A stretch of 55,260 nucleotides of DNA from a virus. Lineage: Duplodnaviria; Caudoviricetes. Positions 6,164-43,681 of this stretch are shown here, piece after piece; position 1 is the first letter of the stretch; each line of letters begins with the position of its first letter. The notes under the pieces were generated by a model, which was not told the origin of the DNA, made no database searches, and saw only the letters and a list, made by a program, of their open reading frames with translations. The translations under genes and the position numbers were made by a program. Location: the IMG/VR virus record IMGVR_UViG_3300020220_002267, positions 1-55,260 of that record; one strand, 5' to 3'.

Positions 6164-6195
6164 AGAGGCTCAAGGTGATCGACTTCGACGTTTGA
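6160..6195 (+). pseudogene. Remnant of the original 5' end of the ThiF/E1 gene (MKRLKVIDFDV*)
   Basis: GTGA overlap with upstream stop; LKVIDFD matches FRIVDMD of the intact E1; ends where the endonuclease insert begins. Confidence 0.55.
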
Positions 6196-6220
6196 CGTAG
6201 AGAGGAACACACGGTAAGCT
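6192..6220 (+). promoter_or_regulatory. Sigma70-like promoter TTGACG-N17-TAAGCT, probably giving leaderless mRNA
   Basis: -10 ends 6 nt before ATG 6227; no SD in between. Confidence 0.65.
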
Positions 6221-6226
6221 GTGCTC

Positions 6227-7171: not shown

Positions 7172-7728
7172 TGGTGGGAGTGGGGGCTTTGGGGAGCCAT
7201 TTCCTGCTCTTCGCTCGAAACATCCCCGCACAATTCCGTATCGTGGATATGGATAGGGTGGAACGTAAGAACGTCATGAGCCAGTTCCACACGAACATGG
7301 CCGTGGGAAAGAACAAGGCCGACGCGCTCAAGCAGGCGATGCAGGGTCTGTTCGGCATCAAGATCGACGCCGTTCCGCACCGGCTCACCACGGACAACGT
7401 GGAGCAGCTACTGGGTGGGGCCGACCTCGTGGTGGACTGCCTCGACAACGGGGCCAGCCGGAAGATCATCCAGAACTACGTGCGGGCCAAGGGCATCCCC
7501 TGTCTCCACGGGGCCCTGGCTCCCGACGGCGGGTTCGGGCGGGCGGTCTGGAGTTCGAACTTTGTGATTGACAACGAGAGTGGGGGTGTGGCAACCTGTG
7601 AGGATGGAGCCCACCTTCCCTTCATCACCATCGTCGCCTCTCATCTTGCCTTCGCCGTGCAGCGATTCCTCGCCACCGGAGAGCAAGTCAATTTCAACAT
7701 CTTCCCTGGCGGGGTCTCGCGCTTCTAG
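7156..7728 (+). CDS. ThiF/MoeB/E1-like adenylyltransferase
   Basis: IVVVGVGALGS, DMDRVERKNVMSQ, KNKA, VVDCLDN; candidate catalytic Cys in ATCED; no CxxC Zn motifs. Confidence 0.9.
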   Translation: MARIVVVGVGALGSHFLLFARNIPAQFRIVDMDRVERKNVMSQFHTNMAVGKNKADALKQAMQGLFGIKIDAVPHRLTTDNVEQLLGGADLVVDCLDNGASRKIIQNYVRAKGIPCLHGALAPDGGFGRAVWSSNFVIDNESGGVATCEDGAHLPFITIVASHLAFAVQRFLATGEQVNFNIFPGGVSRF

Positions 7729-8686
7729 CCGAGAGAAACGAGCAGATCGACGCACAGCACATCTCGATGTAGCGGCTCTCATCGAGGGATATCGTTCCGG
7801 ACTCAGTTCGGCGGAGTTGGCTTGTCGATTCGGGGTCGGTCGATCCACCGTCCTTTCCCGATTGCGAGAGGCGGGTGTGCATGTTCGCCGTCCTTCGGAG
7901 TGGGAGGAAAAGCCACTTGCTCTGTCACCGGAGCGACTGGAACGTCTCACCGAGATCGTGGATGGGTTGATGCTAGGAGATGGGCATCTTCGCCGCCTTG
8001 GCGGCTTGAGACTTGAGCAGAGTCATGTTCGACGCGGGTGGGTCGAAGACGTTCAGCGTCACCTTGCGGATTTGGGAGTGTTGAGCACCCTCGATGAAGT
8101 GATCCGATCTGCCCGTGTTCGTCCTGATGGCCGTGTGCTCCCCCCATACACGGGATGCACCCTTCGGGTGCCTGCCTACGTCGAGCTTAGGGAGTTGCGA
8201 CAGCGGTGGTATCCCAACGGGGTGAAGTGTGTTCCAGAAGATGTGCGACTAACAGCAGCATCAGTCGCGGACTGGGTAAGCGGAGATGGGACCGGCAACT
8301 CGGCTGGGGGTTTGATCCTCTGCACGGATGGCTTCACGGAACAGGATGTTCGACATCTCATCTGCCGTCTCCGGGAGACATTCGGCGTGCGGGCTCGCAC
8401 AGTCTTCTCTGGCGGGGGGAGACCGAAGATCGGGATCCTTCGGAAAGATGATGTCCTCCATCTACGAGACATTTTGCTTCCCCACATGTCGGCGTGCTGC
8501 CACTACAAGTTTCGACACGCACGGGCTGCACAGAAACGAGGAACACTATCGGAGTTCGAAGTTCGAGACATCCGAGCGAGGTACGAAGCGGGGGTGGTGC
8601 TCGCCGTGCTCGCAAATGAATATGGGCTAAGCCGTGCAGCCATCAACAACATCGGGATGCGAAAAGTCTACAAATGGGTGCCCTGA
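7604..8686 (+). CDS. Second LAGLIDADG homing endonuclease with HTH domains (start uncertain, overlaps E1 3' end)
   Basis: IVDGLMLGDGHL, DWVSGDG, LCTDGFT, WYPNGVKCVP; similar to 6227..7171. Confidence 0.8.
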   Translation: MEPTFPSSPSSPLILPSPCSDSSPPESKSISTSSLAGSRASSREKRADRRTAHLDVAALIEGYRSGLSSAELACRFGVGRSTVLSRLREAGVHVRRPSEWEEKPLALSPERLERLTEIVDGLMLGDGHLRRLGGLRLEQSHVRRGWVEDVQRHLADLGVLSTLDEVIRSARVRPDGRVLPPYTGCTLRVPAYVELRELRQRWYPNGVKCVPEDVRLTAASVADWVSGDGTGNSAGGLILCTDGFTEQDVRHLICRLRETFGVRARTVFSGGGRPKIGILRKDDVLHLRDILLPHMSACCHYKFRHARAAQKRGTLSEFEVRDIRARYEAGVVLAVLANEYGLSRAAINNIGMRKVYKWVP

Positions 8687-8850
8687 TCGACGACGAGACG
8701 GGGATGGGTGCCGCCACCTGCGAGGATGGAGAACACCTGCCGTTCATCACCACCGTCTCGAGCTACATGGCTGCCTCGATTCAGCGGTTTCTGAAAGACG
8801 GCCGAAAGGTCGGCTTCCAGGTGCATCCCGGCGGAGTGATGGTCATCTGA
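8686..8850 (+). pseudogene. Displaced original 3' end of ThiF/E1 gene
   Basis: Translates IDDETGMGAATCEDGEHLPFITTVSSYMAASIQRFLKDGRKVGFQVHPGGVMVI*, colinear with the E1 C-terminus at 7567..7728. Confidence 0.85.
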
Positions 8851-8924
8851 GTTGAGGTGGGGGGTTGCCGCCTTCCACCAGTCGGGTAGTAGTGGATGTC
8901 AGAAGCGTTCTTCGACAACTCAAC

Positions 8925-9068
8925 GGCAGGGCCGCCCCGGAGTGGGGCAACCGGTACATAACCGGTCGCAACAGCGACCCGGCTCATCACACTCGCTCCT
9001 TCCTAACCCGAGGGAGCACAACGATGATCCTACAAGCCCGCCAGGTGCAACTCCTGGACCTGCCACCA
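8925..9068 (+). ncRNA. tRNA-like RNA, anticodon CAU, with a 74-nt structured insert in the variable loop and encoded ACCA
   Basis: Acceptor ggcagg/cctgcc+ACCA; D arm gcccc/ggggc; anticodon arm accgg-tacataa-ccggt; T arm ccagg-tgcaact-cctgg. Confidence 0.7.
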
Positions 9069-9209
9069 TTGACCGTCCACTTTGGCAAGCGCACAAGCAG
9101 GTTGGTTCAACTCCAACATTTTCCTCCAAAACTGGAAAATATGCTCCGTGGTGGAGCAATCGATTCATACTCGATCAAAAACAACACGCTTGCCTACTCG
9201 GATGGTCAA
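9069..9209 (+). ncRNA. Circularly permuted tRNA(CAU)-like RNA (3' half first), possibly Y-RNA-like
   Basis: Order: T arm 9101-9117, acceptor 3' strand+UCCA 9118-9128, spacer, acceptor 5' strand 9134-9140, D arm, anticodon arm atcga-ttcatac-tcgat; closed by 8-bp and 10-bp stems. Confidence 0.75.
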
Positions 9210-9245
9210 ACCCTTTCCTCGCCCACAACGGTAAGCCCACAAGCA

Positions 9246-9318
9246 GCGTGAGTAGCTCATCAGGTAGAGCGTCGGGCCAACAACCCGAAGGTAGCTGGTT
9301 CGAGTCCAGCCTTATGCC
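9246..9318 (+). tRNA. Atypical tRNA: initiator-Met-like body with anticodon loop CCAACAA (AAC); possibly a pseudo-tRNA
   Basis: Full cloverleaf: gcgtgag/cttatgc, tagctca..ggtagagc, tcggg/cccga, gctgg-ttcgagt-ccagc; C at position 33; no CCA. Confidence 0.7.
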
Positions 9319-9350
9319 CCGAAAACTTCCCAGGCTTTCCAACTCGGACG

Positions 9351-9468
9351 AGGACCCCTTTCCCTGCCCACTACGAAGTGCCCACACGCCGCCGGGTAGT
9401 CCGGCACCACTCTGCTAAAGTGAATTCTGTGGGTGCGAATCCCACCGTCCCTCTCGCAAGAGGGGGTC
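9351..9468 (+). ncRNA. tRNA-like element (GCU anticodon loop) with non-canonical acceptor region
   Basis: D-like gccgg/ccggc, cact-ctgctaa-agtg, T arm gtggg-tgcgaat-cccac; outer stem ggacccctt/agggggtcc. Confidence 0.45.
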
Positions 9469-9504
9469 CGGCACTTCAACTCGGACAGGGAAGCCCTTCG
9501 CGTC

Positions 9505-9546
9505 GAGCCCTCCCCCTTCCTCAAGGGGCGAGGGCTCCGCCTTTTT
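9505..9546 (+). terminator. Terminator of the tRNA-like RNA cluster
   Basis: gagccctc-cccctt/aagggg-c-gagggctc hairpin, then cgccttttt. Confidence 0.7.
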
Positions 9547-9581
9547 GGGCCTCGGTGATGTTCGCATAGCCACGGCGGGAC

Positions 9582-9980
9582 ATGGAGGTCCGCACCGTGG
9601 CCGAACGTCGGATCGACATCTACATCAACGAAGAAGGCTGGATTGTTGATGTGCTCGGCTTCCCCGAGGACACCGCTGGTTGGTTCGAGCATCTGGAACT
9701 ACTCGCACACGCCCTGGAGGTGGGAGTCACCCCGCACCCCGAGGCGACCAGCGGGGACGTGCAGCAATTCCGATCCCCGGCAGGGACACTGACCTACACC
9801 GAACGCATCACGGTCGTGGTGGACATCGACGGCACCTACGTGTGGTCCAGCCACAACCAGTATGCCACCCGCGCCCTCCTTCAAGACGTGCTCAACCTCG
9901 CTTCGGGGGGCATGGAGGGGTTCGCGATCTTCGATGGTTCGGGTACGGGTCTTCACCACATCCCCATCGGTGAAGCGTGA
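9582..9980 (+). CDS. Hypothetical protein
   Basis: 132-aa ORF, GC3 bias, GTGA overlap with next gene. Confidence 0.6.
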   Translation: MEVRTVAERRIDIYINEEGWIVDVLGFPEDTAGWFEHLELLAHALEVGVTPHPEATSGDVQQFRSPAGTLTYTERITVVVDIDGTYVWSSHNQYATRALLQDVLNLASGGMEGFAIFDGSGTGLHHIPIGEA

Positions 9981-12181: not shown

Positions 12182-12583
12182 CTACTTGCCCGACAGGAGG
12201 GGGAGCAAGTCCTTGCGGAACTCGGGGTGCGAGTGCGCCAGGCGGATGAGACGCGCACGGAGGGTCTGCTCGGAGGCGAACTTCCGGGGGGCATCGTTGG
12301 CCTTGCCGTCCGAGAACTCACCCGTCTCCTGGTCGACGAGCATCTCGGTCGACTCCTGCTGGGTGAACTCGCCCTTCATCCACGGCTTGTCCGCGTCGGA
12401 CTCCGTGGGGCCGTTGTCGCCCTTGCCCGTCACGCCCTCGGCCGAACCACCAGGCTTCACCTCGCCGATCGAGTCGGCCGGGAAGTCAGCAGCGGACTTG
12501 ATGAGGGGGAGAAGATCCTTGCGGAACTCCGGGTGAGCGTGAGCGAGCCGGATGAGGCCCGCACGAAGCAGCTTGTCAGACAT
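12182..12583 (-). CDS. Small acidic protein with IRLAH motif at both termini
   Basis: LRAGLIRLAHAHPEFRKDLLPLI and LRARLIRLAHSHPEFRKDLLPLL. Confidence 0.75.
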   Translation of the reverse strand: MSDKLLRAGLIRLAHAHPEFRKDLLPLIKSAADFPADSIGEVKPGGSAEGVTGKGDNGPTESDADKPWMKGEFTQQESTEMLVDQETGEFSDGKANDAPRKFASEQTLRARLIRLAHSHPEFRKDLLPLLSGK

Positions 12584-12620
12584 GGTGTGGGCTCCTGGGA
12601 GAAGTCACCCACCCAGAGAT

Positions 12621-12635
12621 ATAGGCTCGCCACCG
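12621..12635 (-). promoter_or_regulatory. Class-2 (probable late) promoter motif CGGT-N7-CTAT
   Basis: ATAG-N7-ACCG on plus strand; exact copies also at 16296, 18745, 23093, 25766, 32926, 33119. Confidence 0.65.
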
Positions 12636-12641
12636 CAAGCC

Positions 12642-12697
12642 GGTAGGATACCCGAACACCTGTACTTGACGGGGTACAGGTGTTCGGGTATCCTACC
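12642..12697. repeat. Perfect 24-bp inverted repeat with 8-nt loop, overlapping a sigma70-like promoter
   Basis: ggtaggatacccgaacacctgtac / gtacaggtgttcgggtatcctacc; TTGACG(12666)-N17-TATCCT(12689). Confidence 0.9.
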
Positions 12698-12701
12698 CGA
12701 A

Positions 12702-13322
12702 ATGAGCAAGCCTAAATCAGATCGGTGCCGCGTTTGTGGCGTCCATAGAGACGAAACCCCCTTTGCACCAAAAGCAGGAGGGGCGCGCTGCATGACCTGT
12801 TACAGGGCCGCCCGCAAAGTTCAAAGCCGCGCCTACAGAGAACGAGTACGCGGACAGGTACAGAGGACTTGCTTTCGATGTCGCGAAACCAAAAACGGTT
12901 CAGAGTTCCCAGGTGCAGGCCGTTATTGTAGTGCTTGTGACAAGAAATATCAGATGGAGTACCGCAACTCAACGCCCAGGCGTCACTTGATGAAGGTGCT
13001 CCACAGGATGCGAAGTAACGGAAAAGACAGGGGTGCCACCTGCACTGTAACGTTGGATCAACTCCAAGAGCTTTGGGAACACCAAAAGGGAGTGTGTTTT
13101 TACACAGGCACACCCCTCACTTTCAAAGGTGACAGAGCCCACAGCGCACTCAGTGTGGATCGAATCAACCCGGCTCTCGGGTACGAACCCGGTAATGTTG
13201 TCCTGTGTTGTTGGGCTTTCAACCGAATGAAAACCGATCTAACACTAACGGAGCTAGCAGAACTATGCCGCGCATTTCTGAAGCGAATTGAGGAACAACC
13301 AGCCGCCCTTCATGGAAAGTAA
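12702..13322 (+). CDS. HNH-type endonuclease with N-terminal CxxC zinc fingers
   Basis: CFYTG...SVDRINPALGYEPGNVVLCCWAFNRMK; several CxxC pairs; AT-richer than flanks. Confidence 0.8.
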   Translation: MSKPKSDRCRVCGVHRDETPFAPKAGGARCMTCYRAARKVQSRAYRERVRGQVQRTCFRCRETKNGSEFPGAGRYCSACDKKYQMEYRNSTPRRHLMKVLHRMRSNGKDRGATCTVTLDQLQELWEHQKGVCFYTGTPLTFKGDRAHSALSVDRINPALGYEPGNVVLCCWAFNRMKTDLTLTELAELCRAFLKRIEEQPAALHGK

Positions 13323-13324
13323 AA

Positions 13325-13636
13325 GTGGCGGGTCGACACTTGTATGTGTTTCAGGCTGCGGTCACGGGTGCCGTGAAGGTCGGGCGTTCGGACAACCCCG
13401 AGCGCCGGTTGAACGACCTCCAGGTGGGCTGCCCGTACCGGCTGAAGATCATCCTCGTGGCCCCCTCGCAGGGGCACAGCGAACGTCGCGTCCACGAGGC
13501 CATGAAGCACACTCGAACGCGGTTCATCAACGGGGAGTGGTTCCACGAGATCGGCATCGGGTCCATCCCCGACGACATCTGGGAGCACACCATCCCGTGG
13601 TATCGAGAAGATCCTGACTGGTGGAAAAGAAACTAG
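13325..13636 (+). CDS. GIY-YIG nuclease family protein (T5orf172/MUG113-like)
   Basis: LYVFQ, VKVGRSDNPERRLNDLQVG, ERRVH, GEWF. Confidence 0.8.
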   Translation: MAGRHLYVFQAAVTGAVKVGRSDNPERRLNDLQVGCPYRLKIILVAPSQGHSERRVHEAMKHTRTRFINGEWFHEIGIGSIPDDIWEHTIPWYREDPDWWKRN

Positions 13637-14536: not shown

Positions 14537-16266
14537 CACACGCGGACGCTGGGATCACGGGCGTTCTTGCCCGCCGTCGTGATCTGGATGCCCGTGCCGG
14601 TGACCTTCACCAGGCCCTTGTCCACCAGGCCCTTGATGAGCGGGTTGTCGCCCTTGTAGAGCCCGAGGTCGTACCGCTGGAAGTACTCTCCCCGGTAGCC
14701 GGGCTTGAGGCTGTCCAGGATGGTGATGGCGAGCTTCTCCTCGCGGCTCAGTTCGATCTGGGCCGGGATCAGCGTGGCCATGTTGTCCGGGTGGACCTTG
14801 ATGGTCGCGTACACCGGCCTGCCGCCGCCCTCGCTGCCCTGGATGATGGCGGCGTTGAGGGGGATGGGGTGGTTCCGGTCGTCGGAGTCCACAAGGTTGC
14901 CACGGGTGTACGGGTTCGGACCGCCGAACGACCCCTTGGTCGTCTTGGACTGGCCCGTCTCCATGTTCACAATGCAGGTGAAGTCCCGCTTGCCGTCGTC
15001 CGCGAACGACTGGAACGAGAAGGTCGTGGCGGCCGACACCTCGATGTCCCGACGCCCGTACCCCAGGTCGCTCAAGGCGCTCTTGACGGAGGCGGGCAGA
15101 TCCTTCACCGCGACCCGGGTGCCCCCGAAGGCCGCCTTGTCCGTGGCCCGACGCTGGCCGCTCTCCATCGAGGAGGCGAAGCCGGGGTGGTCACCCAGCT
15201 TCTTGGCGACGTACCGCATCTCCACGAGCGACCAAGGACGCTCGAGCGGCGACAGCGAGGTCAGCGGACAGAACAGGACGAACTCGGAGCCGTCCGTGAA
15301 CGACATGTCCGACGGAGCCACGATCACGTCCCACGCGGCCTGGGCGTTGGACCAGTGGAAGTTGAACACCTTCATTTTCCCGGGCGGCTTGGGGATGTTG
15401 CGTGTTCCAACGCCGCCGAGCTTCGGGAGGAGGAATCGGGTCAGGGCCTTGGCGAGTTGGTCGGCATCGCCCGTGCCCGACACCGTGGCCGTCCCGAGGT
15501 TCGGGTTGATGGAGAGCTTCAGGCCATCCAGTTCCGCCTCGACCGCCGCCTGCCGGAGCAGGGGGAGCAACAGGGGGCGAAGCTCGGGCTTGGAGTAGGC
15601 AAGTCGAACGGTGCGCTGGTGGAGCGAAGAAGCCATGCGAAGGCTCTCCGCCAACTCCCGCGACTTCCACCGAGCGGTGTCCGCGATCATGTGATCGAGG
15701 ATGTCCTTGGCCGTCGAGGAATCACCGAACTCCTGTGCCAGGAACACTCCGAACCAGCCCGCCGCGTAGACCCCGTAGTCGAGAGCCACGCTGATGTCGC
15801 CCGTGTCCACGGACGACTTGTGGCCCGAACCCCCCAGAAGCCGGGTCAGCGAGTGGAAGTTCACGTCCTCGGCCACATCGCTCGCCACCGCTCGGGCTTC
15901 AGCCTTGTCGAAGCCCTCGGCACGAATCGTCGCCGCCACCTGCTTGGCGAGGGTCTTGGCCTCGGGTGGAGCCTTCTCGAGATCCTTGAGGGTGATCGTG
16001 GGGGTGAACATGCCCACGTTCTCGTACTTGTACGTGGGCTGCCGGCGGTGGTTCTCGTAGACGCTCAACTCGCCAGGCTTCCCCCAGGTGACCTGCACCT
16101 CGGTCTTGAGGGGCTTCCCGCTCTTGTCCACGAGCCGCACCCAATTCCAGCGACCGGGCGTCGGGGTCATCGTGCGACCAAACTGGTCCAACCACAGGCG
16201 GTTGTTGAACCTGATGTAGGGTCCAACCTCTCCACTCGCCGTCTTGGGGGTCTGCTGTTGGGACAT
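14536..16266 (-). CDS. Large multi-module hypothetical protein with internal IRLAH-type motif
   Basis: Start MSQQQTPKTA after GGAGG and class-2 motif; internal LHQRTVRLAYSKPELRPLLLPLLRQAA. Confidence 0.7.
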   Translation of the reverse strand: MSQQQTPKTASGEVGPYIRFNNRLWLDQFGRTMTPTPGRWNWVRLVDKSGKPLKTEVQVTWGKPGELSVYENHRRQPTYKYENVGMFTPTITLKDLEKAPPEAKTLAKQVAATIRAEGFDKAEARAVASDVAEDVNFHSLTRLLGGSGHKSSVDTGDISVALDYGVYAAGWFGVFLAQEFGDSSTAKDILDHMIADTARWKSRELAESLRMASSLHQRTVRLAYSKPELRPLLLPLLRQAAVEAELDGLKLSINPNLGTATVSGTGDADQLAKALTRFLLPKLGGVGTRNIPKPPGKMKVFNFHWSNAQAAWDVIVAPSDMSFTDGSEFVLFCPLTSLSPLERPWSLVEMRYVAKKLGDHPGFASSMESGQRRATDKAAFGGTRVAVKDLPASVKSALSDLGYGRRDIEVSAATTFSFQSFADDGKRDFTCIVNMETGQSKTTKGSFGGPNPYTRGNLVDSDDRNHPIPLNAAIIQGSEGGGRPVYATIKVHPDNMATLIPAQIELSREEKLAITILDSLKPGYRGEYFQRYDLGLYKGDNPLIKGLVDKGLVKVTGTGIQITTAGKNARDPSVRV

Positions 16267-16304
16267 GGGTGGAAGCTCCTCCACCCACGCACAGGATAGA
16301 AGCC

Positions 16305-17345
16305 CTACCGAGCCAGAGGAGCGGTCACTCCGGCGGACGGAGCCACCTCGGCCTCGAGCCGCTCGATGGCGTAGCTGAAGTGAGGCACGAGGTAGCCGCT
16401 CTCGTCGAGCGTGGCGTGGAGGATGCCCGTGCTGAACTTGTACTTCCGGCCCGTCTCGACCTGGGTGACCTCGACGTTCGAGATGTGCGGCGGGAAGTTC
16501 TCGGGGTAGGCGAGTTGGGGCTTGACCATGGCGAAGTCGGCGAACCAGCCGCTCACCAACACCTGGCTGCCCGACCCGCACCGCGTCTCGGTGTAGATGC
16601 GCTTCCAGAAGTCCACATCCACTTCGCCAGCGACGGCAGCCCGGATCTTCTGGAGGTGCGGACGAATTCTCGCGAACCACGCAGCCGCCTTGTCGAGCCG
16701 AGCCGCCACGGCGTCGAGGTGCCCGAGGAGGTTGTCCCAGTCCTGGACCGTCCCCTCGACCCGCACCTTGGAGATGCCGCACATCAGCATGCTGTAGTTG
16801 TAGTAGGGGCTCACAGCATCGCAGAAGGCCGCCGCAGCCGCGATGTCGTAGCTCTCGGTCGCCGTCGAGAACTCGGGGAGGAACAGGTCCACTCCCATCG
16901 GCACGATGTCCCGAAGCTGCCCCACGAAGTCGCGAGGGTCGATCCCGTCCTCGGCCCAGCCGTAGACGGTGATGTCCTTCTTGCCGGGGGAGTCGGTGAA
17001 CAGGGCGCGGTAGTGCTCCGTGTTCCTCTTGATGTGCCCCGCCATCTCGGCGAGCACGATGTACCAGATGACCGTGGGGCTGATCACGACCCCGTGGTGG
17101 GTGTTGTACGCATACGTCATGTAGTCGTAGTAGCCCTTGATGTAGGCGTCCGCGTTCTCCGGGACCGTGGACTTGATGATGGCCTTCTCCTTGAGCTTCT
17201 TGGGCCAATTCCTGACAGGCACCGGGATGTCGACGTACTCGGCACCCGTCAGGGTGTTCAGGAACTCGGCGCGGGTCTTCTGCTCCCTCCTGTGCGCGTG
17301 GATCTTGACCGGCTGGAGGGAGGCGTCGACAACGATCTCAGGCAT
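16305..17345 (-). CDS. DUF4419-like protein
   Basis: AYNTHHGVVISPTVIW, PEFST, YYNYSMLMCGISKVRVEGTVQDW, GSGSQVLVSGW. Confidence 0.7.
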   Translation of the reverse strand: MPEIVVDASLQPVKIHAHRREQKTRAEFLNTLTGAEYVDIPVPVRNWPKKLKEKAIIKSTVPENADAYIKGYYDYMTYAYNTHHGVVISPTVIWYIVLAEMAGHIKRNTEHYRALFTDSPGKKDITVYGWAEDGIDPRDFVGQLRDIVPMGVDLFLPEFSTATESYDIAAAAAFCDAVSPYYNYSMLMCGISKVRVEGTVQDWDNLLGHLDAVAARLDKAAAWFARIRPHLQKIRAAVAGEVDVDFWKRIYTETRCGSGSQVLVSGWFADFAMVKPQLAYPENFPPHISNVEVTQVETGRKYKFSTGILHATLDESGYLVPHFSYAIERLEAEVAPSAGVTAPLAR

Positions 17346-17375
17346 GAGGTGGACTCCTGGAGCCCACCTACGCAA

Positions 17376-18704
17376 TCAGGCCAGCTTGTCGATCGCCTGG
17401 CGGATTCGAACCAGCCCTGCCTCGAGGGCTTCCGTGCTCACCGCACCCACGGAAATGCGGAACCACCCCGTGTCTTCCGTCAACCCGAACGCCTGGAAGG
17501 CGACCAGAGCCACCCGGGCCTCGTGAAGCAGGTACTGCCGGATGTCGTTGTTGGTCTTGAGCGTCATCCCGTTGGGGGATGACAGCCCGAGCACGTCGAA
17601 TCGGACCGAGGTGTAGATGGCCCCTTGTGGAGCCACCACCTCGACGGGGAGCCCGGCGGACTTCATGCCCTTGAAGAACATGTAGACCATCCCGAGCCGA
17701 AGCTGGAGCTTCTCGTGGAGTTCGGTTCGGAACTGGCTGTAGGCGGGCTCGTCGGCCAGGAACTTCGCGGCAGACGCCTGGACGGCTCGAGGAGCCCATC
17801 CTCCGATGTGGCCCATGAGGTCCCGCACCGGGTCGTACAGGTGCGGGGGGACGACGGCCCACCCGAGCCGAAGCCCCGTGCCCACCATCCACTTCGAGAT
17901 GGCGTCGATGTAGATCGCCCAGGGGGCGATCTCGGGCACCAACTCGATGGGGTGGTAGAACTTGTACTCCCCGAACGCCAGGGGCCAGTACACCTGGTCG
18001 AACAGCATGTAGACGGGGCGACGGTCCGGCCCCCGCTTCATGTTCTCCGACACGATGGCATCACAGATGCTCCGCAACCCCTCCTTCGAGATGACCGTCC
18101 CGCAGGGGTTGAGCGGGCTGTTCAGACAGAACAGGTGGACATCGGGGTCCGAGATCGCCTCCGCCACCTGGTCGGGCGTCGGCATGAAGTTCGTCCCGGC
18201 CGAGGTCGGGAGAGGCACACACTCGGCCCCACAGAGCTTCGTGTAGTAGTCGTTGTTCCAGCTTGGGACCGGGTAGACGACCTTCTCCCCGGGCTTCAGG
18301 AGCGCCCGGAACACCCCGTAGATGGGAGGCCGGGCCCCACCACAGATGACCACGGACTTCGCGGGGAACCGGATGTTGAGTTCCCGCTCGTAGAAGTCCA
18401 TCACCGCCTGTTGAAGCTCGGGAAGCCCGTCGGACGGAGGGTACTGGTTGCGACCCGCCAGCACCTCTGAAGCGAGGTCCGACAGGAACGACTCGGGAGC
18501 CCGGAACTGCTCGGGGGCGAAGTCCCCCACCGTCAGGTCACAGACCTCGACCCCCGTGGCCTTCAGCGCCCTCGCCTCGGAAGCTGCCGCCAAGATGCGC
18601 GACCCCTCCATCGTCAGGACTTCGTGCGAGAGGGCCTTCTCCCGCAAGTCGCGGGTGGTGGCGGGGTCACTGCCGGGAAGGAAATCAGACACACGGATGG
18701 GCAT
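17376..18704 (-). CDS. PLP-dependent aminotransferase class I/II (aspartate aminotransferase-like)
   Basis: YPPSDGLPEL, LNSPLNPCG, FDQVY, ISKWMVGTGLRLGW, PQGAIY, WFRIS. Confidence 0.92.
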   Translation of the reverse strand: MPIRVSDFLPGSDPATTRDLREKALSHEVLTMEGSRILAAASEARALKATGVEVCDLTVGDFAPEQFRAPESFLSDLASEVLAGRNQYPPSDGLPELQQAVMDFYERELNIRFPAKSVVICGGARPPIYGVFRALLKPGEKVVYPVPSWNNDYYTKLCGAECVPLPTSAGTNFMPTPDQVAEAISDPDVHLFCLNSPLNPCGTVISKEGLRSICDAIVSENMKRGPDRRPVYMLFDQVYWPLAFGEYKFYHPIELVPEIAPWAIYIDAISKWMVGTGLRLGWAVVPPHLYDPVRDLMGHIGGWAPRAVQASAAKFLADEPAYSQFRTELHEKLQLRLGMVYMFFKGMKSAGLPVEVVAPQGAIYTSVRFDVLGLSSPNGMTLKTNNDIRQYLLHEARVALVAFQAFGLTEDTGWFRISVGAVSTEALEAGLVRIRQAIDKLA

Positions 18705-18751
18705 GGGTCTCCTGGGGCGGTTGGGGCGATGACCACCCGTACCCATAGGGA

Positions 18752-19387
18752 CTACACCGATGCACGAACCCGTGTTTGTCCCAGGATCGCGGACACGTCG
18801 ATGCTCTCTCCATCCGCACGGTCTCGAACGGCCTGCAGAAGCGTGTGCAGCGAGCCCAGTTTGGACTGGTCGTACCGGAAGATGTTGCCGGGAGCCATCT
18901 GCTCGACCCCCTCGTTCCACGACTGAGCGGAAACGATGACCACCCCCCGAGGGCGACGGGCCAGCCAGCCCATGAAGTACGGAGGCCAGTCGTCCACGAG
19001 GACCCGCCCGTAGGCGATGGACTTGTTCTCGGTGATGGTGATCTCGACCTCGGGAGGTAGGTGCGTCCGGCACCACTCGACCTTCTCCGACCATGCGGCG
19101 GGCTTCCGAGACGGCCCCTTCGTCAGCACATGGATGGCGAAGCCATGTGTCCGAAGTGCCCCGAGGATGTCGAACCCCATCTCGAGACGGGGAAGCGCCC
19201 GCCACCAACCAGGCTGGAGGGAGATGACCCTGCGACGCGCTTCGAGCCAGTCAGGGAAATCGCCTCCTGGAGAGGGCTCGTACTCGGGCTCGCCGGGTGA
19301 CCGGAGCTTCTCCAGGTCACGCCTCATCACCCCGTCGTAGTCCACCAGGGTGCCGTCCATGTCTACCAAGGCGATGCGGTTGCTCAT
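18752..19387 (-). CDS. HAD-family 5'(3')-deoxyribonucleotidase
   Basis: LVDMDGTLVD, EKVEWCRTHLP, VLVDDWP. Confidence 0.85.
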   Translation of the reverse strand: MSNRIALVDMDGTLVDYDGVMRRDLEKLRSPGEPEYEPSPGGDFPDWLEARRRVISLQPGWWRALPRLEMGFDILGALRTHGFAIHVLTKGPSRKPAAWSEKVEWCRTHLPPEVEITITENKSIAYGRVLVDDWPPYFMGWLARRPRGVVIVSAQSWNEGVEQMAPGNIFRYDQSKLGSLHTLLQAVRDRADGESIDVSAILGQTRVRASV

Positions 19388-19410
19388 GCCCACCTCTACC
19401 CCATCGAGCG

Positions 19411-19436
19411 GTTCAGCTTCCTGGTCCGTCACGTAG
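19411..19436 (+). promoter_or_regulatory. Class-1 promoter motif GTTCAG-N15-CGTAG
   Basis: Followed by AGGAGG and ATG 19455. Confidence 0.7.
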
Positions 19437-19454
19437 TAGAAGTAGGAGGCCCAG

Positions 19455-20045
19455 ATGCCCAGCGGCAAAGCAGAGTTCTTCAAGCTCATCGAGGCCACCC
19501 TCGACCGGAAGTCCGCGCTTCGGATCCGCTTTGCCTACCGGCTGGCCAAGGACATCCACCGCAACCAGCGTCGCAAGGCCGTCCGCGAGGGGGAGAACCC
19601 CCGCTACTTCGAGCACCCGCGTGAGGTGGCTCTCATCTCGATGAAGCACTCGATGGACCCCGACCTGATCATCGCGTGCCTTCTCCACGACACCATCGAG
19701 GACGGCGGAGGCGACATCCTCGACGCCGAGGAGATCGAGATGTTCCTGGGCACCGAGGTCATCACCATCGTCCGGATGGTGTCGAAGGTCCCCAAGGAAG
19801 GCTTCCACGAGCGGTTCGCCTCCTACTCGGACTGGAGGGCTCGGTGGGTCAAGGCGTGCGACCGCCTCCACAACCTCCGCACCCTGCCCCCAGGGGATGC
19901 GGCCTTCCGCCAGAAGCAGATCACGGAGACGATGACCCAGTACCAACCCCTGTTCGAGGAGATGGTCACGATGGTGCCCGAGACCTACAAGAAGGGCGCT
20001 CGAGCCATCGTGGACGGGATCTACCGCGCGATGACGATGCCCTGA
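19455..20045 (+). CDS. Stand-alone RelA/SpoT-type HD hydrolase (small alarmone hydrolase / Mesh1-like)
   Basis: HRNQRRK, YFEHP, CLLHDTIED, VKACDRLHNLRT. Confidence 0.85.
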   Translation: MPSGKAEFFKLIEATLDRKSALRIRFAYRLAKDIHRNQRRKAVREGENPRYFEHPREVALISMKHSMDPDLIIACLLHDTIEDGGGDILDAEEIEMFLGTEVITIVRMVSKVPKEGFHERFASYSDWRARWVKACDRLHNLRTLPPGDAAFRQKQITETMTQYQPLFEEMVTMVPETYKKGARAIVDGIYRAMTMP

Positions 20046-20049
20046 AACG

Positions 20050-20670
20050 CGAAACCCCGGCTGGGCTTCCCTTTTCAGGGTCCCAACCGGGGTTTCATCC
20101 CGCTCACCAGGGGCTCCCTTTCGGGAGGTTGGTGGTCCTCACCCTTTCGAGTGAGTCTGGCCTCCGAGGAGGATAGGGGGGGTGCCTTTCGGCCCGAGTC
20201 TCGGCTCCTGCTCACTCTCGGGCCTCACTGTGAGGGCCGATTCCCTCACTCCACCCGATCGTCTTGCAGGTACTCGGCGGTCACTCCACTCGGTCGCTTG
20301 TCGTCCTCTGCCTTTTGGGGCTTCAGCACGACCTCCGACTTGCCCGCCGTTACAACCCCTTTCGGGGAGCGGCGGTCCGAGACTTGTCATCCGGTCTCCC
20401 GGAGTGATGTCTCGGTCCCCGTGGTCCTGTTACATCGGGACCGTTGCCTGGTAGGTTTCTGTCCGACCGTCGCCGGACTCCCTTCCCAAGCGTCCGAGAG
20501 GTCTGCCGGTGGAAGATGTCGGCTTTCGCCGTTCCTCTACCGACCTCCCACTCCTCCGCTTTCGCTTCGGACTGGGCCCCCTCTCGTAGGGGTGGAGTGC
20601 CCTCGTTGGGGTGGGCTCTGTCTCCCCGATTGCTCGGCTCGACTTCGGCACCGCCCTTCCGTCTGGCCCC
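20050..20670 (-). ncRNA. Large highly structured non-coding RNA (~600 nt), GOLLD/ROOL-like size class
   Basis: No credible ORF; at least seven GNRA-capped hairpins on the minus strand; ends in gaaaccccgg/ccggggtttc terminator stem. Confidence 0.7.
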
Positions 20671-20737
20671 CACCAAGTAGCACGACCCCGGGATCGTGCA
20701 ACCCGCACCCCAAACTTTTCTCAACTTTCTTCAAACG

Positions 20738-22081
20738 CTAGGGTGGAGGCCGGAAAGAAGTTTCGAGGAACGCGGCCAGCCGATCTCGAACGCCCTCGGG
20801 GTCCTCTTTCACCTCGGACTCCCACACGATGAGACACGCGATCCCCACGCCCCTATAGGCGTCGATGAGGTCGGACTCGTGCTCGAACGGGGCCTTGCCC
20901 GTGAACATCCGCGAGTGCCAGAAATCACCGAACGCCTCGACCACGCGGGTGACACCCTTCTTCGGCTTCGCAGGGTCGGGACCGGGCACGATGAAGTCCG
21001 GGTTCTTGTAGTGTCCCAGCTTCGGGAGATGCCGCCACCATCGCCGATCTCCGGTATAAACGAGCGCATCGGGAGATGGGGCGAGGGCACAGACTTGGGC
21101 CTCCAACCCGTTCATCCCAGACTTCGGCCGGGCAAGCATCCCCGGCCACGCCAAATCCGGGAAGTTGACCTTGAAAGTGGTCAACACCCTATCCCACGCG
21201 CCCGGCGTCTTCATCCAGTGATCGACCCCGTATTTCTCGACGAGGACATGTCGAATCTCCTCCTTCCCCTCCTCCGACGCGAACCAGTGTGTGCCATACC
21301 TCGCGTGGTGCGTCTCCAACTGCTTCCGCCGCACCTCAGGGTCCATGCAGGTGTGAGGCACGCCATACCTGGCGAGGTTCGTTGCAACCACCTTCGCCTG
21401 CACCTCGGGTGTCCCTCCCGCGAATGCCGCCCCGTACCTCTCCAGGTTCGTCACCTCCGCCTTCGCCCGAATCACCGGGGAGCCGAGCAGTTCGCCCTCG
21501 TACCGTTCCTCGTTGGTGGCTTTCGTCCGAGCCCGAATCTCTGGCACCTGCTGCGGGTTCTCCGCCCCGTGTCTCTCCAGCATCGACTCGCGGATCCTCT
21601 CCCTCACCGACTCTGACGCAAACGGGTTCTCCGCCCCGTGCCTTGCCATGCACGTCGCCTTCCTCTTCGCGTTCGACTCGGGGATGTAGTCGTTGTGCTC
21701 GACCCCGTAGCGATCAAGCATCGTCGCCCGACTCCGGGCCTTGATCTCCTCCGACTGGAACAGGTTGTCCACGCCGTACTTGGCCTTCACGGTCGCCTGC
21801 CGCCGGGCCACCACATCAGGAGCCTGTGAGGCATCTTCGACCCCGTAGAGAGAGAGGTTCGTTGCCATCCGTCGCTCGGATGCCACGACCTCCACGTCTC
21901 GGGAGAGCCATGTTTCGCACGTCCTCCGGTGCCGCTTCATCTGGGTCAAAGACGTCGAGACGTGCCCGCAGAGACAAGGTGGGACAGTCGAGGAGCGCGA
22001 AGGATCGCAAACCGCGATGTGGCGGGAGTTTAGCTTCTCGCCGGGAAACTCACGAGAACAGTGCGGACATGTGGTTGGCAT
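20738..22081 (-). CDS. Free-standing endonuclease: Zn fingers, ~24-aa YGV repeats, C-terminal Vsr/PD-(D/E)XK-like domain
   Basis: About ten (Y/H)GVxN-like repeats; NPDF...VEAFGDFWH...LIVWESE; TTGTGC-N17-TATCCT promoter 7 nt before ATG. Confidence 0.75.
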   Translation of the reverse strand: MPTTCPHCSREFPGEKLNSRHIAVCDPSRSSTVPPCLCGHVSTSLTQMKRHRRTCETWLSRDVEVVASERRMATNLSLYGVEDASQAPDVVARRQATVKAKYGVDNLFQSEEIKARSRATMLDRYGVEHNDYIPESNAKRKATCMARHGAENPFASESVRERIRESMLERHGAENPQQVPEIRARTKATNEERYEGELLGSPVIRAKAEVTNLERYGAAFAGGTPEVQAKVVATNLARYGVPHTCMDPEVRRKQLETHHARYGTHWFASEEGKEEIRHVLVEKYGVDHWMKTPGAWDRVLTTFKVNFPDLAWPGMLARPKSGMNGLEAQVCALAPSPDALVYTGDRRWWRHLPKLGHYKNPDFIVPGPDPAKPKKGVTRVVEAFGDFWHSRMFTGKAPFEHESDLIDAYRGVGIACLIVWESEVKEDPEGVRDRLAAFLETSFRPPP

Positions 22082-22157
22082 ACCTCAGAGGATAGCCGAA
22101 GCCCATACACCGCACAATATGAGTCGTGTATTGTCTAGGGACAACGCCGAAAAAAAC

Positions 22158-23066
22158 TCAAACAAAGTTCCTCGGTGACAGCACACCCCGACCCACATGG
22201 GGGCCGAAGGCGGAGCGCACACCGATTCCGAACCGGGGCTGCTTGAGGCCGCGCATGAACTTGGTCGTGCGAGACTTCGCCTCGGTGAGCTTGTCCCACT
22301 GTTCTTCGGCGTTCCGCTTCAGGTCCATGTACCCGGCGGACTTGTTGATGTTGAGCGAGATGCCGCCGATGGAGTAGTCGAACTCGTCCGCCACCCAGTT
22401 GAACGCCAACGCCATCGCGGCATGGACCACAGCCCCCCACAGGAGAGCCGCCTTCCACGCGGGCTTGCTGGAGCAGATGGCGTTGAGGTCACACAGTTCC
22501 TCCGTCTCGGGAGGCTGCATGTTCCACTTGTCGAGAGCCATGCGGAGGAACTCGAGAAGCTCCTCGTCCGTCCAGATGTAGCCGAACACCTGGTTGTAGC
22601 ACCCGACCGTGGATTCGCTCTCCGGAGGGCGGAAGTGGTAGTTCTTGTCCGGATTGTTGTCGCGGAGCATGAACCGGAGCTTCCGCACCAGGTCCGCTTC
22701 ACACTGGGACATGACCGCCGTGCCCCCGCTCGAACCCACGTCGGTGGTCGTCGAGACGATGGCGAACTCCTGGACGACCTGCTGTGCGGGAGTGGCTGAA
22801 GTCTCCTGGAACGTCCAACGGATGCGGTAGTCACCAGGCTGTGCCGACAGGGGGACCATGAGCGAGGCGTAGTACTCGCCCACCGCTGGGTTCATCGGAG
22901 TGCGTGCCGCTGGCGGGATGAGCACTTCGACCTGCGTGGCGGGGTCCACGTAGTAGATGGCGTAGGTGAGGGAGTACGCATTGATCGCGTTCCCCGACGA
23001 ATTGGTGAGGAAGATGTCGAGGTCGCCTCGACTCAGCGTCTGGCCCGGCTGAAAGACGACGCCCAT
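22158..23066 (-). CDS. Probable virion structural protein (head-tail connector-like)
   Basis: GGAGG SD, class-2 motif at 23093; beta-rich N-terminus plus helical LRFMLRD...TDEELLEFL domain. Confidence 0.55.
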   Translation of the reverse strand: MGVVFQPGQTLSRGDLDIFLTNSSGNAINAYSLTYAIYYVDPATQVEVLIPPAARTPMNPAVGEYYASLMVPLSAQPGDYRIRWTFQETSATPAQQVVQEFAIVSTTTDVGSSGGTAVMSQCEADLVRKLRFMLRDNNPDKNYHFRPPESESTVGCYNQVFGYIWTDEELLEFLRMALDKWNMQPPETEELCDLNAICSSKPAWKAALLWGAVVHAAMALAFNWVADEFDYSIGGISLNINKSAGYMDLKRNAEEQWDKLTEAKSRTTKFMRGLKQPRFGIGVRSAFGPHVGRGVLSPRNFV

Positions 23067-23119
23067 CGCGGCTCCTCCACCTTTCTGTAGGGATAGGCAC
23101 GATACCGACCCCCGGTAGG

Positions 23120-24001
23120 ATGAGCCCGGAGGATCTCATGGCAGAGTTCGCCGCCTACCGGGCAACCAAGGCTTTCCACATCGGGCAGATCCGGGTTGAT
23201 GTGAAGCCGGGCGACGTGCTCTTGTTCGATGGGGTCTCCACCCAGATCGCGGGGGCCACTCACACGATCCCTCTCGTGGAGAAGGTCATCAAGGCGGGGT
23301 GGCTCGCCCCGGCCCCGGATGCCTTCGCCCTCGCGGTCCCTGTCCCCACGCCCGAGGTCGAGGCCAAGGCCGAACCCATCCCCTTCGCCTCGCCGGAGGC
23401 GAAGGCTGCGGACGGTGTTCGACCCGAGGCGGGCAAACAGCACGTCTGGGAGGGTGGCCCCAACGACTGGCTCAACTCCGGGGACGGAATGACGTGCAAG
23501 GTCTGCGGGGTCACGTTGTTGCCCGAGTGGAAGCTGATCCGGACTGACCGGATGCGTGGGAACGGGAAACAGCAGTTCCACTACCGGGACGCACACGGGG
23601 TTCAGTTCTCCTCGTTCACCGAACTCTCATGCCCGACCTACCTCGGGGACGCGGCCAGTGCGGCGGCACAGACCAAGGAGGTCGTCCGCAACGTTCGGGG
23701 CCAGGTGGATGCCGTCGAGGGGCGTGTGGGCGGCGTTGAGGACCGCGTGGAGACGGTCGAGGCCAGGTTGCAACGCCTCGAGGCGGAGAACGAACTCCTC
23801 ATGCAGCAACTGTCGGAGCGCCCCATGGTGGACGCCACCCAGGTGGCAGAGGCCCTCTACGCCATCATGGAGCGCAAGGTGGCCGAGTCCAAGGCTCTCG
23901 GGGAGGGCGGAGTGAAGTACCTGCCCTTGCCCAGCGTGGACGAGATGACACAGGAGATCCGCGTCCCTGTGCCCGTGGTCGTGCTGCGCGAGGACGAGTA
24001 G
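23120..24001 (+). CDS. Hypothetical coiled-coil protein; N-terminal domain paralogous to 29495..30514
   Basis: FHIGQ..GDVLLFDG..AGWLAPA; heptad VEGRVGGVEDRVETVEARL. Confidence 0.7.
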   Translation: MSPEDLMAEFAAYRATKAFHIGQIRVDVKPGDVLLFDGVSTQIAGATHTIPLVEKVIKAGWLAPAPDAFALAVPVPTPEVEAKAEPIPFASPEAKAADGVRPEAGKQHVWEGGPNDWLNSGDGMTCKVCGVTLLPEWKLIRTDRMRGNGKQQFHYRDAHGVQFSSFTELSCPTYLGDAASAAAQTKEVVRNVRGQVDAVEGRVGGVEDRVETVEARLQRLEAENELLMQQLSERPMVDATQVAEALYAIMERKVAESKALGEGGVKYLPLPSVDEMTQEIRVPVPVVVLREDE

Positions 24002-24002
24002 C

Positions 24003-24251
24003 TCAGCCGCTGTGGACGAGGGCCTTGAACGCCTTGATCTCTTCGGCGTAGGGGCGGGCCGCCACCTTCGAGATGTTGTTGAAGAACTGGAGCTTGAGGT
24101 CGTCCAGCCCTTCCTGGTCAGCGAACATGAAGAACGCCCGCTTTTCCTCTCGGGTGATCCCCTGGAACTCCACGCCTGCCACTTTCAGGTAGGCCGCCAG
24201 GTAGAGGTCCGAGGTGCGGAACTGCGACTTCGGCTTGTGTAGGGTGCTCAT
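24003..24251 (-). CDS. DUF5659-like small protein
   Basis: FRTSDLYLAAYL motif. Confidence 0.65.
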   Translation of the reverse strand: MSTLHKPKSQFRTSDLYLAAYLKVAGVEFQGITREEKRAFFMFADQEGLDDLKLQFFNNISKVAARPYAEEIKAFKALVHSG

Positions 24252-24279
24252 CGGGTTTTCTCCATAGGGTCTAACGACA

Positions 24280-24309
24280 AAGGGGGTGGGATTGGAGCCC
24301 CACCCCCTT
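24280..24309 (-). terminator. Terminator after 24334..24978
   Basis: 11-bp stem aagggggtggg/cccaccccctt. Confidence 0.65.
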
Positions 24310-24333
24310 CGCGGGGTTCACTCTACCGAGTGA

Positions 24334-24978
24334 CTACATCAGCGCGCCGGTGTCGTCGTAGACGACAACCGCTGCACCGGTGGTGCCACCGTACTCGAAG
24401 GAGGCGGACTTGAAGCCCGCCAGGTGCCCCTCGGCCGAGGAGATGTTCAGGGCGAACGAGTCGTAGGTCGCGCGGTAGGTGCCCGTGGTGAAGGCACCGG
24501 CCTGCGAACCCTTGAAGGCCGCACCGGAGTTCGCACCCGTGCCCTGCGGAACGACGTACTCACCGCCCGCGAGGATCTGGAGGAGTTCGGCGAGCGAGCC
24601 GACGGAGCCGTTTCCGTCCAGTTCGGTCGCCGCAACAACGGTTGCGAGGGCCGTGTTGACGTTGGCGAGCGTCATCGCCGTACCGGCGTCGAGCACCGCA
24701 ATGACGGCGGTGGCCATCGAGTTGGCCTGAGTCGCCGTGAGGGCGTTGCCCGTGCCACCGTGAGCCACGGAGTCGAGGATGTAGGCGGCCAGACCACTGT
24801 ACGCCGCCGACGTCACGTTCGACGACACGGCGACCGTGTCGTTCTGGAGCCGGTTGACGTACTTGGTCTGCCCGGCCGGGTCGTAGATGCTGTTCCGCAG
24901 CGACGTGTTGGGAACCAGGTCGAGAACCTGGAGGGTCCCATTGGGGATGTCGGAACGGATCATCGCGATGTACGGCAT
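24334..24978 (-). CDS. Probable virion structural protein (Ala/Thr/Gly-rich)
   Basis: AGGAG SD, class-2 variant at 25021, own terminator, strong codon bias. Confidence 0.6.
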   Translation of the reverse strand: MPYIAMIRSDIPNGTLQVLDLVPNTSLRNSIYDPAGQTKYVNRLQNDTVAVSSNVTSAAYSGLAAYILDSVAHGGTGNALTATQANSMATAVIAVLDAGTAMTLANVNTALATVVAATELDGNGSVGSLAELLQILAGGEYVVPQGTGANSGAAFKGSQAGAFTTGTYRATYDSFALNISSAEGHLAGFKSASFEYGGTTGAAVVVYDDTGALM

Positions 24979-25039
24979 GGTGAACTCCTGGACCTGCGGT
25001 CCTCTATGATGGGGAGGTTTATCGAACGACTACCGAACG

Positions 25040-25729
25040 TCACGCCATTTCGGCGTTGACGACAGCGAAGAAGACACTGAACGGAACGGTTGCTCCGTCT
25101 CCACGCACGAACACCTCGGACACCGCCCCATCTGGGAGAAGGATGGTTTGGTTCGCCAAGACCTCGAACTCTGGGAGTCCGGGGCTGAACGACACGTAGA
25201 TGGAAGCTGCTCCGCTGTTGGTGATGGTCGAGGAGTCCGCAAATCGCGGGAGGACGAAGTGGAGGGCTCCGGCTGGGGGCACACCCGTCGAGGAGGCCGC
25301 AACGTTCGGAGCCGTGCCCGAAACCGTGAGGTTCGGGCGTGTGGTGACGAAGAACCCTGGCGGAGGAACAATCAGAATGGGGCCCGCTGGCCGGAACGTC
25401 CCACCCGCGTTCCGCTCATTGACCCGGAGGTAGCCTCCGGCGGCATCGTGGGGGAGCGCCCCACCACCCACCCAGTAGTCCTCGGGGTCGTACTGGGCGA
25501 AGGTCAGCCCACGGTTGGTGTAGATCGAGCGACCCACCTTCCGGTCCCGGATGGAAGGCGACTGGAACGTGGCCCCTTGAGCCACCGTGAACATCGTCGT
25601 CGTGCCCGCAAAGGCGGCGTCCAACGTGTTGGATGCCCCAACACGATAGGCCATGACATCGGGCTTGTTGGTGAAAACAAGCTCGACGAAGCGTTCGTAT
25701 CGGTTGGTGAGGCGCGGCGAGGTGGGCAT
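25040..25729 (-). CDS. Probable virion structural protein (beta-rich)
   Basis: Class-2 motif at 25766; continuous ORF. Confidence 0.55.
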   Translation of the reverse strand: MPTSPRLTNRYERFVELVFTNKPDVMAYRVGASNTLDAAFAGTTTMFTVAQGATFQSPSIRDRKVGRSIYTNRGLTFAQYDPEDYWVGGGALPHDAAGGYLRVNERNAGGTFRPAGPILIVPPPGFFVTTRPNLTVSGTAPNVAASSTGVPPAGALHFVLPRFADSSTITNSGAASIYVSFSPGLPEFEVLANQTILLPDGAVSEVFVRGDGATVPFSVFFAVVNAEMA

Positions 25730-43633: not shown

Positions 43634-43681
43634 GAGGGCTCCAGTGGATGACTTCTCATCCACAGGAGCCCTATCAAACCT

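Follow-up and report, generated by a model that had tools for sequence, protein, structure and literature searches.

A candidate large structured RNA on the minus strand of a huge-phage fragment

In an intergenic stretch of phage DNA we identify what is best read, on the strength of its sequence, as a new, lineage-restricted large structured RNA. The RNA would run on the minus strand from about position 20705 (possibly 20751) to about 20050 of the window, as we call the whole 55,260-bp virus record analysed here, and its ~650-700 nt appear to be kept for their fold. Substitution in the stretch is far slower than at neutral sites; the changes that have occurred maintain minus-strand base pairing, and GNRA loops continue to cap the hairpins even where the letters of the loops differ. 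We consider it highly probable (roughly 85%) that the stretch functions on this strand as a structured RNA or RNA element. A preliminary description had proposed a high-GC RNA either belonging to the GOLLD/ROOL class or representing a new one; the comparisons below uphold its view of a non-coding, structured RNA on the minus strand, and do not uphold membership in GOLLD or ROOL.

A slowly evolving intergenic stretch and its relative

The window is an IMG/VR virus record of 64% GC with an estimated completeness of 11%, which implies that the phage itself is much larger and the record a fragment of it. Its supposed phage origin is supported by this provenance and by its relatives among the huge phages, with contigs of up to 618 kb carrying homologues of its genes. 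Among the 24 runs listed with the stretch, those that contain large shares of it are lake-water metagenomes, and no RNA run is among the 24. The gap of about 690 bp without a credible ORF, from which the preliminary description had started, indeed exists: it spans 692 nt (20046-20737) between a plus-strand gene for an HD-domain protein that ends at 20045 and a minus-strand gene that ends at 20738, and it displays no codon periodicity. GC content by codon phase over 20050-20700 lies between 0.52 and 0.76 with no phase dominant, the third-position GC of both flanking genes being 0.82-0.94. The minus strand of the gap is rich in A and poor in U, the plus strand having ~11% A and ~25% T.

An alignment of homologues of the HD protein led to one homologue of the stretch, in a 140-kb metagenome contig (L049). 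This contig is collinear with positions 16262-20756 and 22146-25434 of the window at 87-88% identity and lacks the 1389 bp that in the window hold an endonuclease-like gene, so that a gene for a 302-aa protein there abuts the RNA. Since the RNA is present in L049 without the endonuclease gene, it is independent of that gene. In addition, a biofilm run contains a diverged, L049-like third variant on a 6.3-kb contig, which matches positions 19432-20756 of the window with 121 substitutions and 16 gaps; the match spans the HD gene and the whole gap and stops at the start of the endonuclease gene. The RNA is known, accordingly, from two sequence lineages plus this L049-like variant.

Across eight flanking genes, the divergence between the window and L049 at four-fold degenerate sites ranges from 0.167 to 0.402. 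The gap as a whole has diverged by 0.118 (81 substitutions), and it has done so unevenly, with values of 0.018 in a 5' block (20592-20705; 2 of 114 positions), 0.164 over 20293-20415, and 0.236 in the region of the terminal stem. Substitutions are spread over the three phases as 31/26/25, one-base indels shift the frame at several points, and the two copies do not share their open frames. The even phase spread, the indels and the non-shared frames, taken with the low divergence, indicate that the stretch is constrained, though not as protein; neither the codon periodicity nor the frame conserved between relatives that mark a protein-coding gene is present.

The substitutions themselves point to the minus strand. 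Its minimum free energy in the window is -336.4 kcal/mol, and it still reaches -329.6 kcal/mol once the 76 real substitutions are introduced, whereas 200 random substitution sets of equal base-change spectrum average -292.7 +/- 8.9 kcal/mol and none of them is as stable. The plus strand shows the effect less clearly: 2 of 150 random sets match the real one in stability, and the cost of random substitutions is 12.3 kcal/mol there as compared with 43.7 for the minus strand. Slow evolution and pair-preserving substitutions, the two general signs of a conserved structured RNA, are thus both found, in a comparison of two sequences that limits the statistical support for individual helices.

Evidence of a different kind comes from the loops. 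A scripted scan of both strands of 20046-20737 for GNRA loops closed by at least four pairs recovered seven hairpins, all of them on the minus strand: a GCAA loop at 20626-20637, a GAGA loop at 20390-20403, and GAAA loops at 20520-20531, 20356-20367, 20138-20155, 20114-20127 and 20069-20080. In 1000 dinucleotide-preserving shuffles the mean was 0.71 such hairpins (sd 0.83, maximum 4), and nowhere else in the 55-kb record does a segment of 692 nt contain seven on either strand. The GAAA and GCAA hairpins of the minus strand reported in the preliminary description are largely recovered in this way, except that those at 20184-20193 and 20558-20565 have stems of just 3 and 2 bp, while the GAGA hairpin was absent from its list. 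Three hairpin loops switch from GAAA to GCAA in L049, and thereby remain GNRA. The gcc-CCAAAA-ggc element noted earlier at 20310-20321 is present in the window and is not conserved in L049.

Folding z-scores of the gap were -7.58 and -7.04 in two runs on the minus strand, and -3.28 and -6.55 on the plus strand (the latter with 15 shuffles). Nine coding windows of equal length gave +0.40 to -6.11 over both strands; as coding sequence thus reaches about -6.1, the z-score of the gap is not distinctive and we place no weight on it. The coding window nearly as extreme as the RNA (z -6.1) is 43000-43691 on the minus strand, which overlaps 42830-43663 (-).

The RNA appears to be narrowly distributed. 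The HD alignment recovered four loci among metagenome contigs, with the RNA in L049 only; in two of the others (L050 and L051; HD proteins 70-75% identical) ordinary coding sequence stands beside the HD gene and no such RNA was found. The HD protein and an aminotransferase had no relatives in the viral contigs searched. A blastn search of a phage GenBank collection at a distant setting gave no match to the RNA, and neither blastn nor nhmmer found similarity to it in 13 loci with endonuclease homologues or in their 13 whole records. The same was true of 26 loci with homologues of the 302-aa gene, and L049 is the one locus with more than five GNRA hairpins per 700 nt. A covariance model built on one domain of the RNA (R1, from domain D1 described below) matched only the window (217.5 bits) and L049 (202 bits) among 52 sources, and had no matches in 34 related huge-phage records, a set that does not contain the record of L049. 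Two DNA patterns taken from the conserved block returned two matches and then two viral and nine genome matches, all of which we attribute to chance; those inspected (L056, L064 and L065) fall in coding-looking sequence. The homologue search proposed in the preliminary description yielded L049, with compensatory double changes in five pairs.

Predicted architecture and ends of the RNA

A consensus fold of the two sequences computed with RNAalifold comprises 216 pairs, none of them broken, with five changed on both sides and 14 on one side. As this consensus is derived from the same two sequences on which it is scored, we also checked the minimum free energy structure of the window alone against L049: 194 of its pairs are unchanged, 11 are changed on one side and five on both, 20 are broken and six gapped. 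Substitutions fall in 42 of the 472 paired columns of this structure versus 41 of the 256 unpaired ones. Slid controls gave 0-2 double changes versus the five observed and 5-7 further pair types versus 19, and a shuffle control, weak with two rows, reached the observed values in 18 of 500 shuffles. With two lineages, the covariation rests on five pairs.

The 5' end of the predicted RNA is formed by an almost invariant block. This core block (20592-20705) contains the conserved hairpin H1 (20675-20704), the GCAA hairpin at 20626-20637, a tandem motif, and the 5' strands of three predicted long-range helices, namely H2 (20647-20656), H3 (20628-20642) and H5 (20592-20605). The two copies of this motif, CCACCCC[A/U]ACGAG, are spaced 19 nt apart within the block (region 20583-20614, minus strand). 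The 3' strands of the long-range helices lie at 20275-20289 (H5), 20189-20202 (H3) and 20177-20186 (H2), in a region (20177-20289) where they enclose a long hairpin, H15 (20204-20273), with 11 differences in 70 nt. These three 3' strands together have one difference in 39 nt relative to L049, and both strands of H2, H3 and H5 differ at one of 78 positions. No covariation is seen in these helices in the two-sequence alignment; hence their pairing, and with it one large fold in place of a row of separate hairpins, is a prediction.

Between the strands of the long-range helices lie domain D1 (20417-20591), predicted by RNAalifold as a multi-helix junction, and three peripheral hairpins (20293-20415). 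D1 comprises H8 (20547-20576), which has a GAAA tip, H9 (20505-20544), H10 (20446-20491) and H11 (20423-20442); H9 combines a compensatory change from U-A to G-C with a switch of its tip from GAAA to GCAA. The peripheral hairpins, which display 16.4% divergence, are H12 with the GAGA loop (20377-20415), H13 with a GAAA/GCAA loop (20344-20375) and H14 (20293-20339); H12 and H14 have one compensatory double change each. Three further hairpins, supported by RNAalifold and the GNRA scan, occupy the 3' part (20105-20176): H16 (20157-20176), H17 (20138-20155), whose sequence including the GAAA loop is identical in the window and L049, and H18 (20105-20134), also with a GAAA loop. The differences are concentrated in peripheral elements such as H9 (11 of 40), H13 (9 of 34) and the terminal stem (13 of 42). 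Large functional RNAs combine a conserved core with a periphery that varies and is compensated, and the fold predicted here would likewise have an invariant core, made of the three long-range helices and their junctions, ringed by variable hairpins.

Two further candidate interactions were noted. Positions 20351-20355 may pair with 20264-20268, judging by two double changes and one single change that turn UUGUA/UGCAA in the window into UCACA/UGUGA in L049. Further, GUGGAGUGA occurs twice in the region 20246-20296 of the minus strand, and both copies are complementary to one upstream strand, GGCACUCCAC, which makes alternative or intermolecular pairing possible.

The 3' end is marked by a terminal stem-loop, H19 (20044-20101), that abuts the stop codon of the HD gene. 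Of the 13 pairs in its main stem (20053-20094), two are changed on both sides in a compensatory way and one on a single side, and its apical loop reads CCCUGAAAAGGG in the window and CCCGCAAGGG in L049. A terminator had been proposed at 20051-20096: the stem is real and compensated, while it has no U tract and a terminator scan is silent there. H19 probably stops transcription from both sides without the aid of a U tract and would serve both converging transcripts. At the other end, the weak TTGCAC/TACTTG promoter suggested earlier is not supported, as no sigma-70-like site was found there by the scan and both hexamers lie inside the conserved hairpin at 20675-20704. More generally, the scan for sigma-70 promoters and terminators returned no recognisable promoter and no canonical terminator at the RNA. 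Just upstream of the RNA lies an A/U-rich island (20712-20735, minus strand), one of ten AT-rich islands in the 55 kb, whose motif occurs once in the window and is identical in L049 but for one extra A; by its sequence it could be a promoter or a processing site. RNAalifold also predicts a possible outer helix, H0, in which 20742-20751 would pair with 20665-20674 through ten pairs, one of them changed from A-U to G-U. The 5' strand of H0 is intergenic in L049, where it starts 8 nt past the stop codon of the 302-aa gene, and in the window it now coincides with the final codons of the inserted endonuclease gene.

Genomic setting and comparison with known RNA families

The RNA-bearing gap lies at a junction of convergent transcription in a variable part of the genome. 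On one side is the converging plus-strand gene (19455-20045) for an HD_4 phosphohydrolase (Pfam HD_4, 9.7e-17), whose product is similar to small (p)ppGpp hydrolases. On the other is the endonuclease-like gene on the minus strand (ORF 20738-22081, 447 aa; Pfam DUF7487, 1.7e-35; PHROG 3339 'homing endonuclease'), carried by an insertion spanning 20757-22145. Its absence from the collinear L049 identifies it as a free-standing insertion in the window. Short T-rich/GGC microhomology is seen at both junctions of the insertion (window 20757-22145; L049 5286-5300), and the last codons and stop of the endonuclease gene are borrowed from older intergenic sequence: the letters that form the end of the endonuclease gene in the window are found in L049 a few bases beyond the stop of the 302-aa gene.

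The 302-aa gene (22158-23066) lies upstream of the RNA on the same strand, in a block conserved among huge phages. Its complete ORF closes ahead of the RNA and can be aligned from end to end with 16 homologues. A structural model of the protein (mean pLDDT 68.9) has an N-terminal Ig-like sandwich, and its comparison with known structures gave no informative match. In several related huge phages this gene is split by inserts of about 0.45-1.5 kb, located near residue 137 (L002/L044, L009, L011/L040, L042) or near residues 223-238 (L004, L006/L012, L045, L046), where L011 and L040 are the same contig. Those split genes whose pieces are in one frame suggest inteins, and those with a frame change suggest introns or inserted genes; the loci concerned yielded no intron family at Rfam gathering scores.

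What comes after the 302-aa gene varies. In most relatives it is the endonuclease gene, and in two related contigs the slot held here by the large RNA is occupied by tRNA-Asn and tRNA-Ser genes; in both, the endonuclease gene is immediately followed by tRNA-Asn(GTT) and tRNA-Ser(GGA) (L024, 5331-5505; L040, 8113-8288). The sole tRNA of the window, tRNA-Val (9246-9320, plus strand), lies 10.7 kb from the RNA and has the anticodon AAC, which is unusual in bacteria and phages. AT-rich islands are present just upstream of it, at 9115-9187. Two long regions of the window, 6131-9636 and 12521-13401, combine weak codon periodicity with lower GC (0.55-0.62) and may contain small genes or more non-coding elements.

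This tRNA-Val was the only match to Rfam at gathering scores over the whole window. With the threshold relaxed to E = 10, a search with all 4227 Rfam models returned no match beyond scattered sub-threshold noise both in the window (19900-20900) and in L049 (4500-5400). This search covered the families against which the preliminary description had proposed to check the RNA (GOLLD, ROOL, RNase P, introns, OLE, raiA), and as none of them matched, a new kind of RNA stays the preferred interpretation and membership in GOLLD or ROOL is not supported. RNase P RNA, tmRNA, 6S, SRP RNA and rRNA fragments were also rejected as candidates, there being no Rfam match to them and no tmRNA found by ARAGORN in the window or L049. 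In the literature searched, no report of such a large RNA in huge phages was found.

Given that no Rfam family matches, a comparison with ROOL and GOLLD is one of analogy, of kind and not of sequence. Both are described (PMC12286853) as phage or prophage RNAs, often located near tRNA islands, whose assemblies are bridged by kissing loops and A-minor contacts. ROOL is characterized as several hundred nucleotides long and highly elaborate in secondary structure, with neither a protein partner nor a function known, and GOLLD as having one conserved and one less conserved part and a name that refers to a lake origin (PMC12286853). The RNA of the window resembles ROOL in being phage-borne, ~650 nt long and GNRA-rich; it differs in that the ROOL covariance model fails to match, that no tRNA island adjoins it in the window, and that it is known from two lineages only. 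With GOLLD it shares carriage by a phage, an origin in lake water, judging by the runs that contain large shares of the stretch, and an uneven conservation, with an invariant 5' block and variable hairpins. The conserved part of GOLLD, however, is its 3' region and not, as here, a 5' block with its pairing strands; many GOLLD members exceed 800 nt, whereas the window RNA is smaller and has no embedded or adjacent tRNA; and the GOLLD model, too, fails to match.

Alternative explanations and a possible role

Among the alternatives to a new large RNA, the one that survives best, though we hold it to be unlikely, is a cis-acting 3' UTR of the transcript of the 302-aa virion-block gene, which would stabilise the mRNA against exonucleases and insulate it from the HD gene. 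The arrangement in L049, where the structure lies on the strand of the 302-aa gene and begins 8 nt past its stop codon, would fit such a tail, as would the failure of the scan to find a separate promoter and the strong stem-loop, common to the converging gene, in which the element ends. A length of 650 nt with an almost invariant 114-nt core nevertheless far exceeds the needs of mRNA protection. Moreover, in the window a 1.4-kb gene has been inserted between the 302-aa gene and the RNA with no relaxation of conservation, and 26 relatives of the 302-aa gene are without such a tail.

A ribozyme, or the relic of a self-splicing or mobile intron possibly tied to the neighbouring homing endonuclease, is improbable. 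Phage group I and group II introns are large GNRA-rich folds with a conserved core and a variable periphery that often come with homing endonuclease genes, and the present RNA recalls such ribozymes in its size, its GNRA loops, its core-plus-periphery conservation and the endonuclease gene that adjoins it in the window; the inserts of 0.45-1.5 kb that split the 302-aa gene in several relatives also favor this possibility. Against it, the group I and group II models are without a match even at a threshold of E = 10, and the RNA interrupts no gene, the 302-aa ORF being intact. The GUGCG at 20704-20708, which could recall the conserved 5' GUGYG of group II introns, reads otherwise in L049, where the endonuclease gene is missing as well, and the inserts in the 302-aa genes of relatives share no similarity with the RNA. 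The juxtaposition of a structured RNA and a nuclease gene is also reminiscent of the HEARO/omega RNAs of IscB and TnpB, but here the pairing is not constant, with the RNA lacking the gene in L049 and the gene lacking the RNA in 13 loci; the HEARO model of Rfam did not match the window between 19900 and 20900.

We likewise give little credence to an element that acts as DNA (a replication, packaging or recombination site) or a spacer with terminator-like hairpins. Such an element would be in keeping with the position, where transcription converges and the genome is variable, and with the plus strand, which also forms hairpins (the z-scores of -3.28 to -6.55 given above) and retains its stability under the real substitutions better than under most random sets. 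It is at odds with the confinement of the GNRA hairpins to the minus strand, the higher cost of random substitutions there, and the many G-U pairs and A-U to G-U changes, which are mismatches on the other strand; furthermore, neither iterons nor AT-rich origin features were seen beyond the one 24-nt island. Still less probable is a very divergent, high-GC member of GOLLD, ROOL, OLE or raiA that the models missed: carriage by a phage, lake water, a similar size range and an ornate predicted structure would agree with it (PMC12286853), while neither copy matched any of the 4227 models in searches of ~1 kb at E up to 10. Finally, a missed protein-coding gene, for instance one with frameshifts or another genetic code, is effectively refuted despite the long open frames of either strand, which reach 196 aa on the plus strand, given the lack of periodicity, the frames that differ between copies and the even spread of substitutions over phases, and since the 196-aa frame, when searched as a protein for miscalled homologues, recovered a single cluster identical to the L049-type sequence itself.

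As to the role of the candidate RNA, we see about even odds that it is, by analogy with ROOL and GOLLD, a stable, trans-acting architectural RNA. In such a scenario its transcription would accompany or immediately follow that of the conserved upstream virion-block gene and would stop at the terminal stem-loop. Its GNRA loops might then dock into helices of its own or of sister molecules, and this docking would build a compact particle or an RNA-protein scaffold during infection; the RNA would not be a cis-regulator of a neighbouring gene. More tentatively, it might be the first representative of a new class of giant ornate RNAs, restricted to a lineage of freshwater huge phages, where it would take up a slot that related phages fill with tRNA genes. 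Such an RNA would either fold by itself, via its GNRA loops, into a compact particle or a symmetric multimer, or be a new large ribozyme.

To our knowledge, the bacterial and phage RNAs that exceed 500 nt and have conserved, elaborate folds make up no more than a handful of classes. Those studied so far have proved to be ribozymes, ribonucleoprotein cores or, recently, RNA-only cages (PMC12286853). The candidate is practical to test in view of its defined ends, its stable, high-GC fold and a size suited to cryo-EM. If its identification is correct, a new class would extend this short list to the huge phages, whose non-coding content is almost unexplored.
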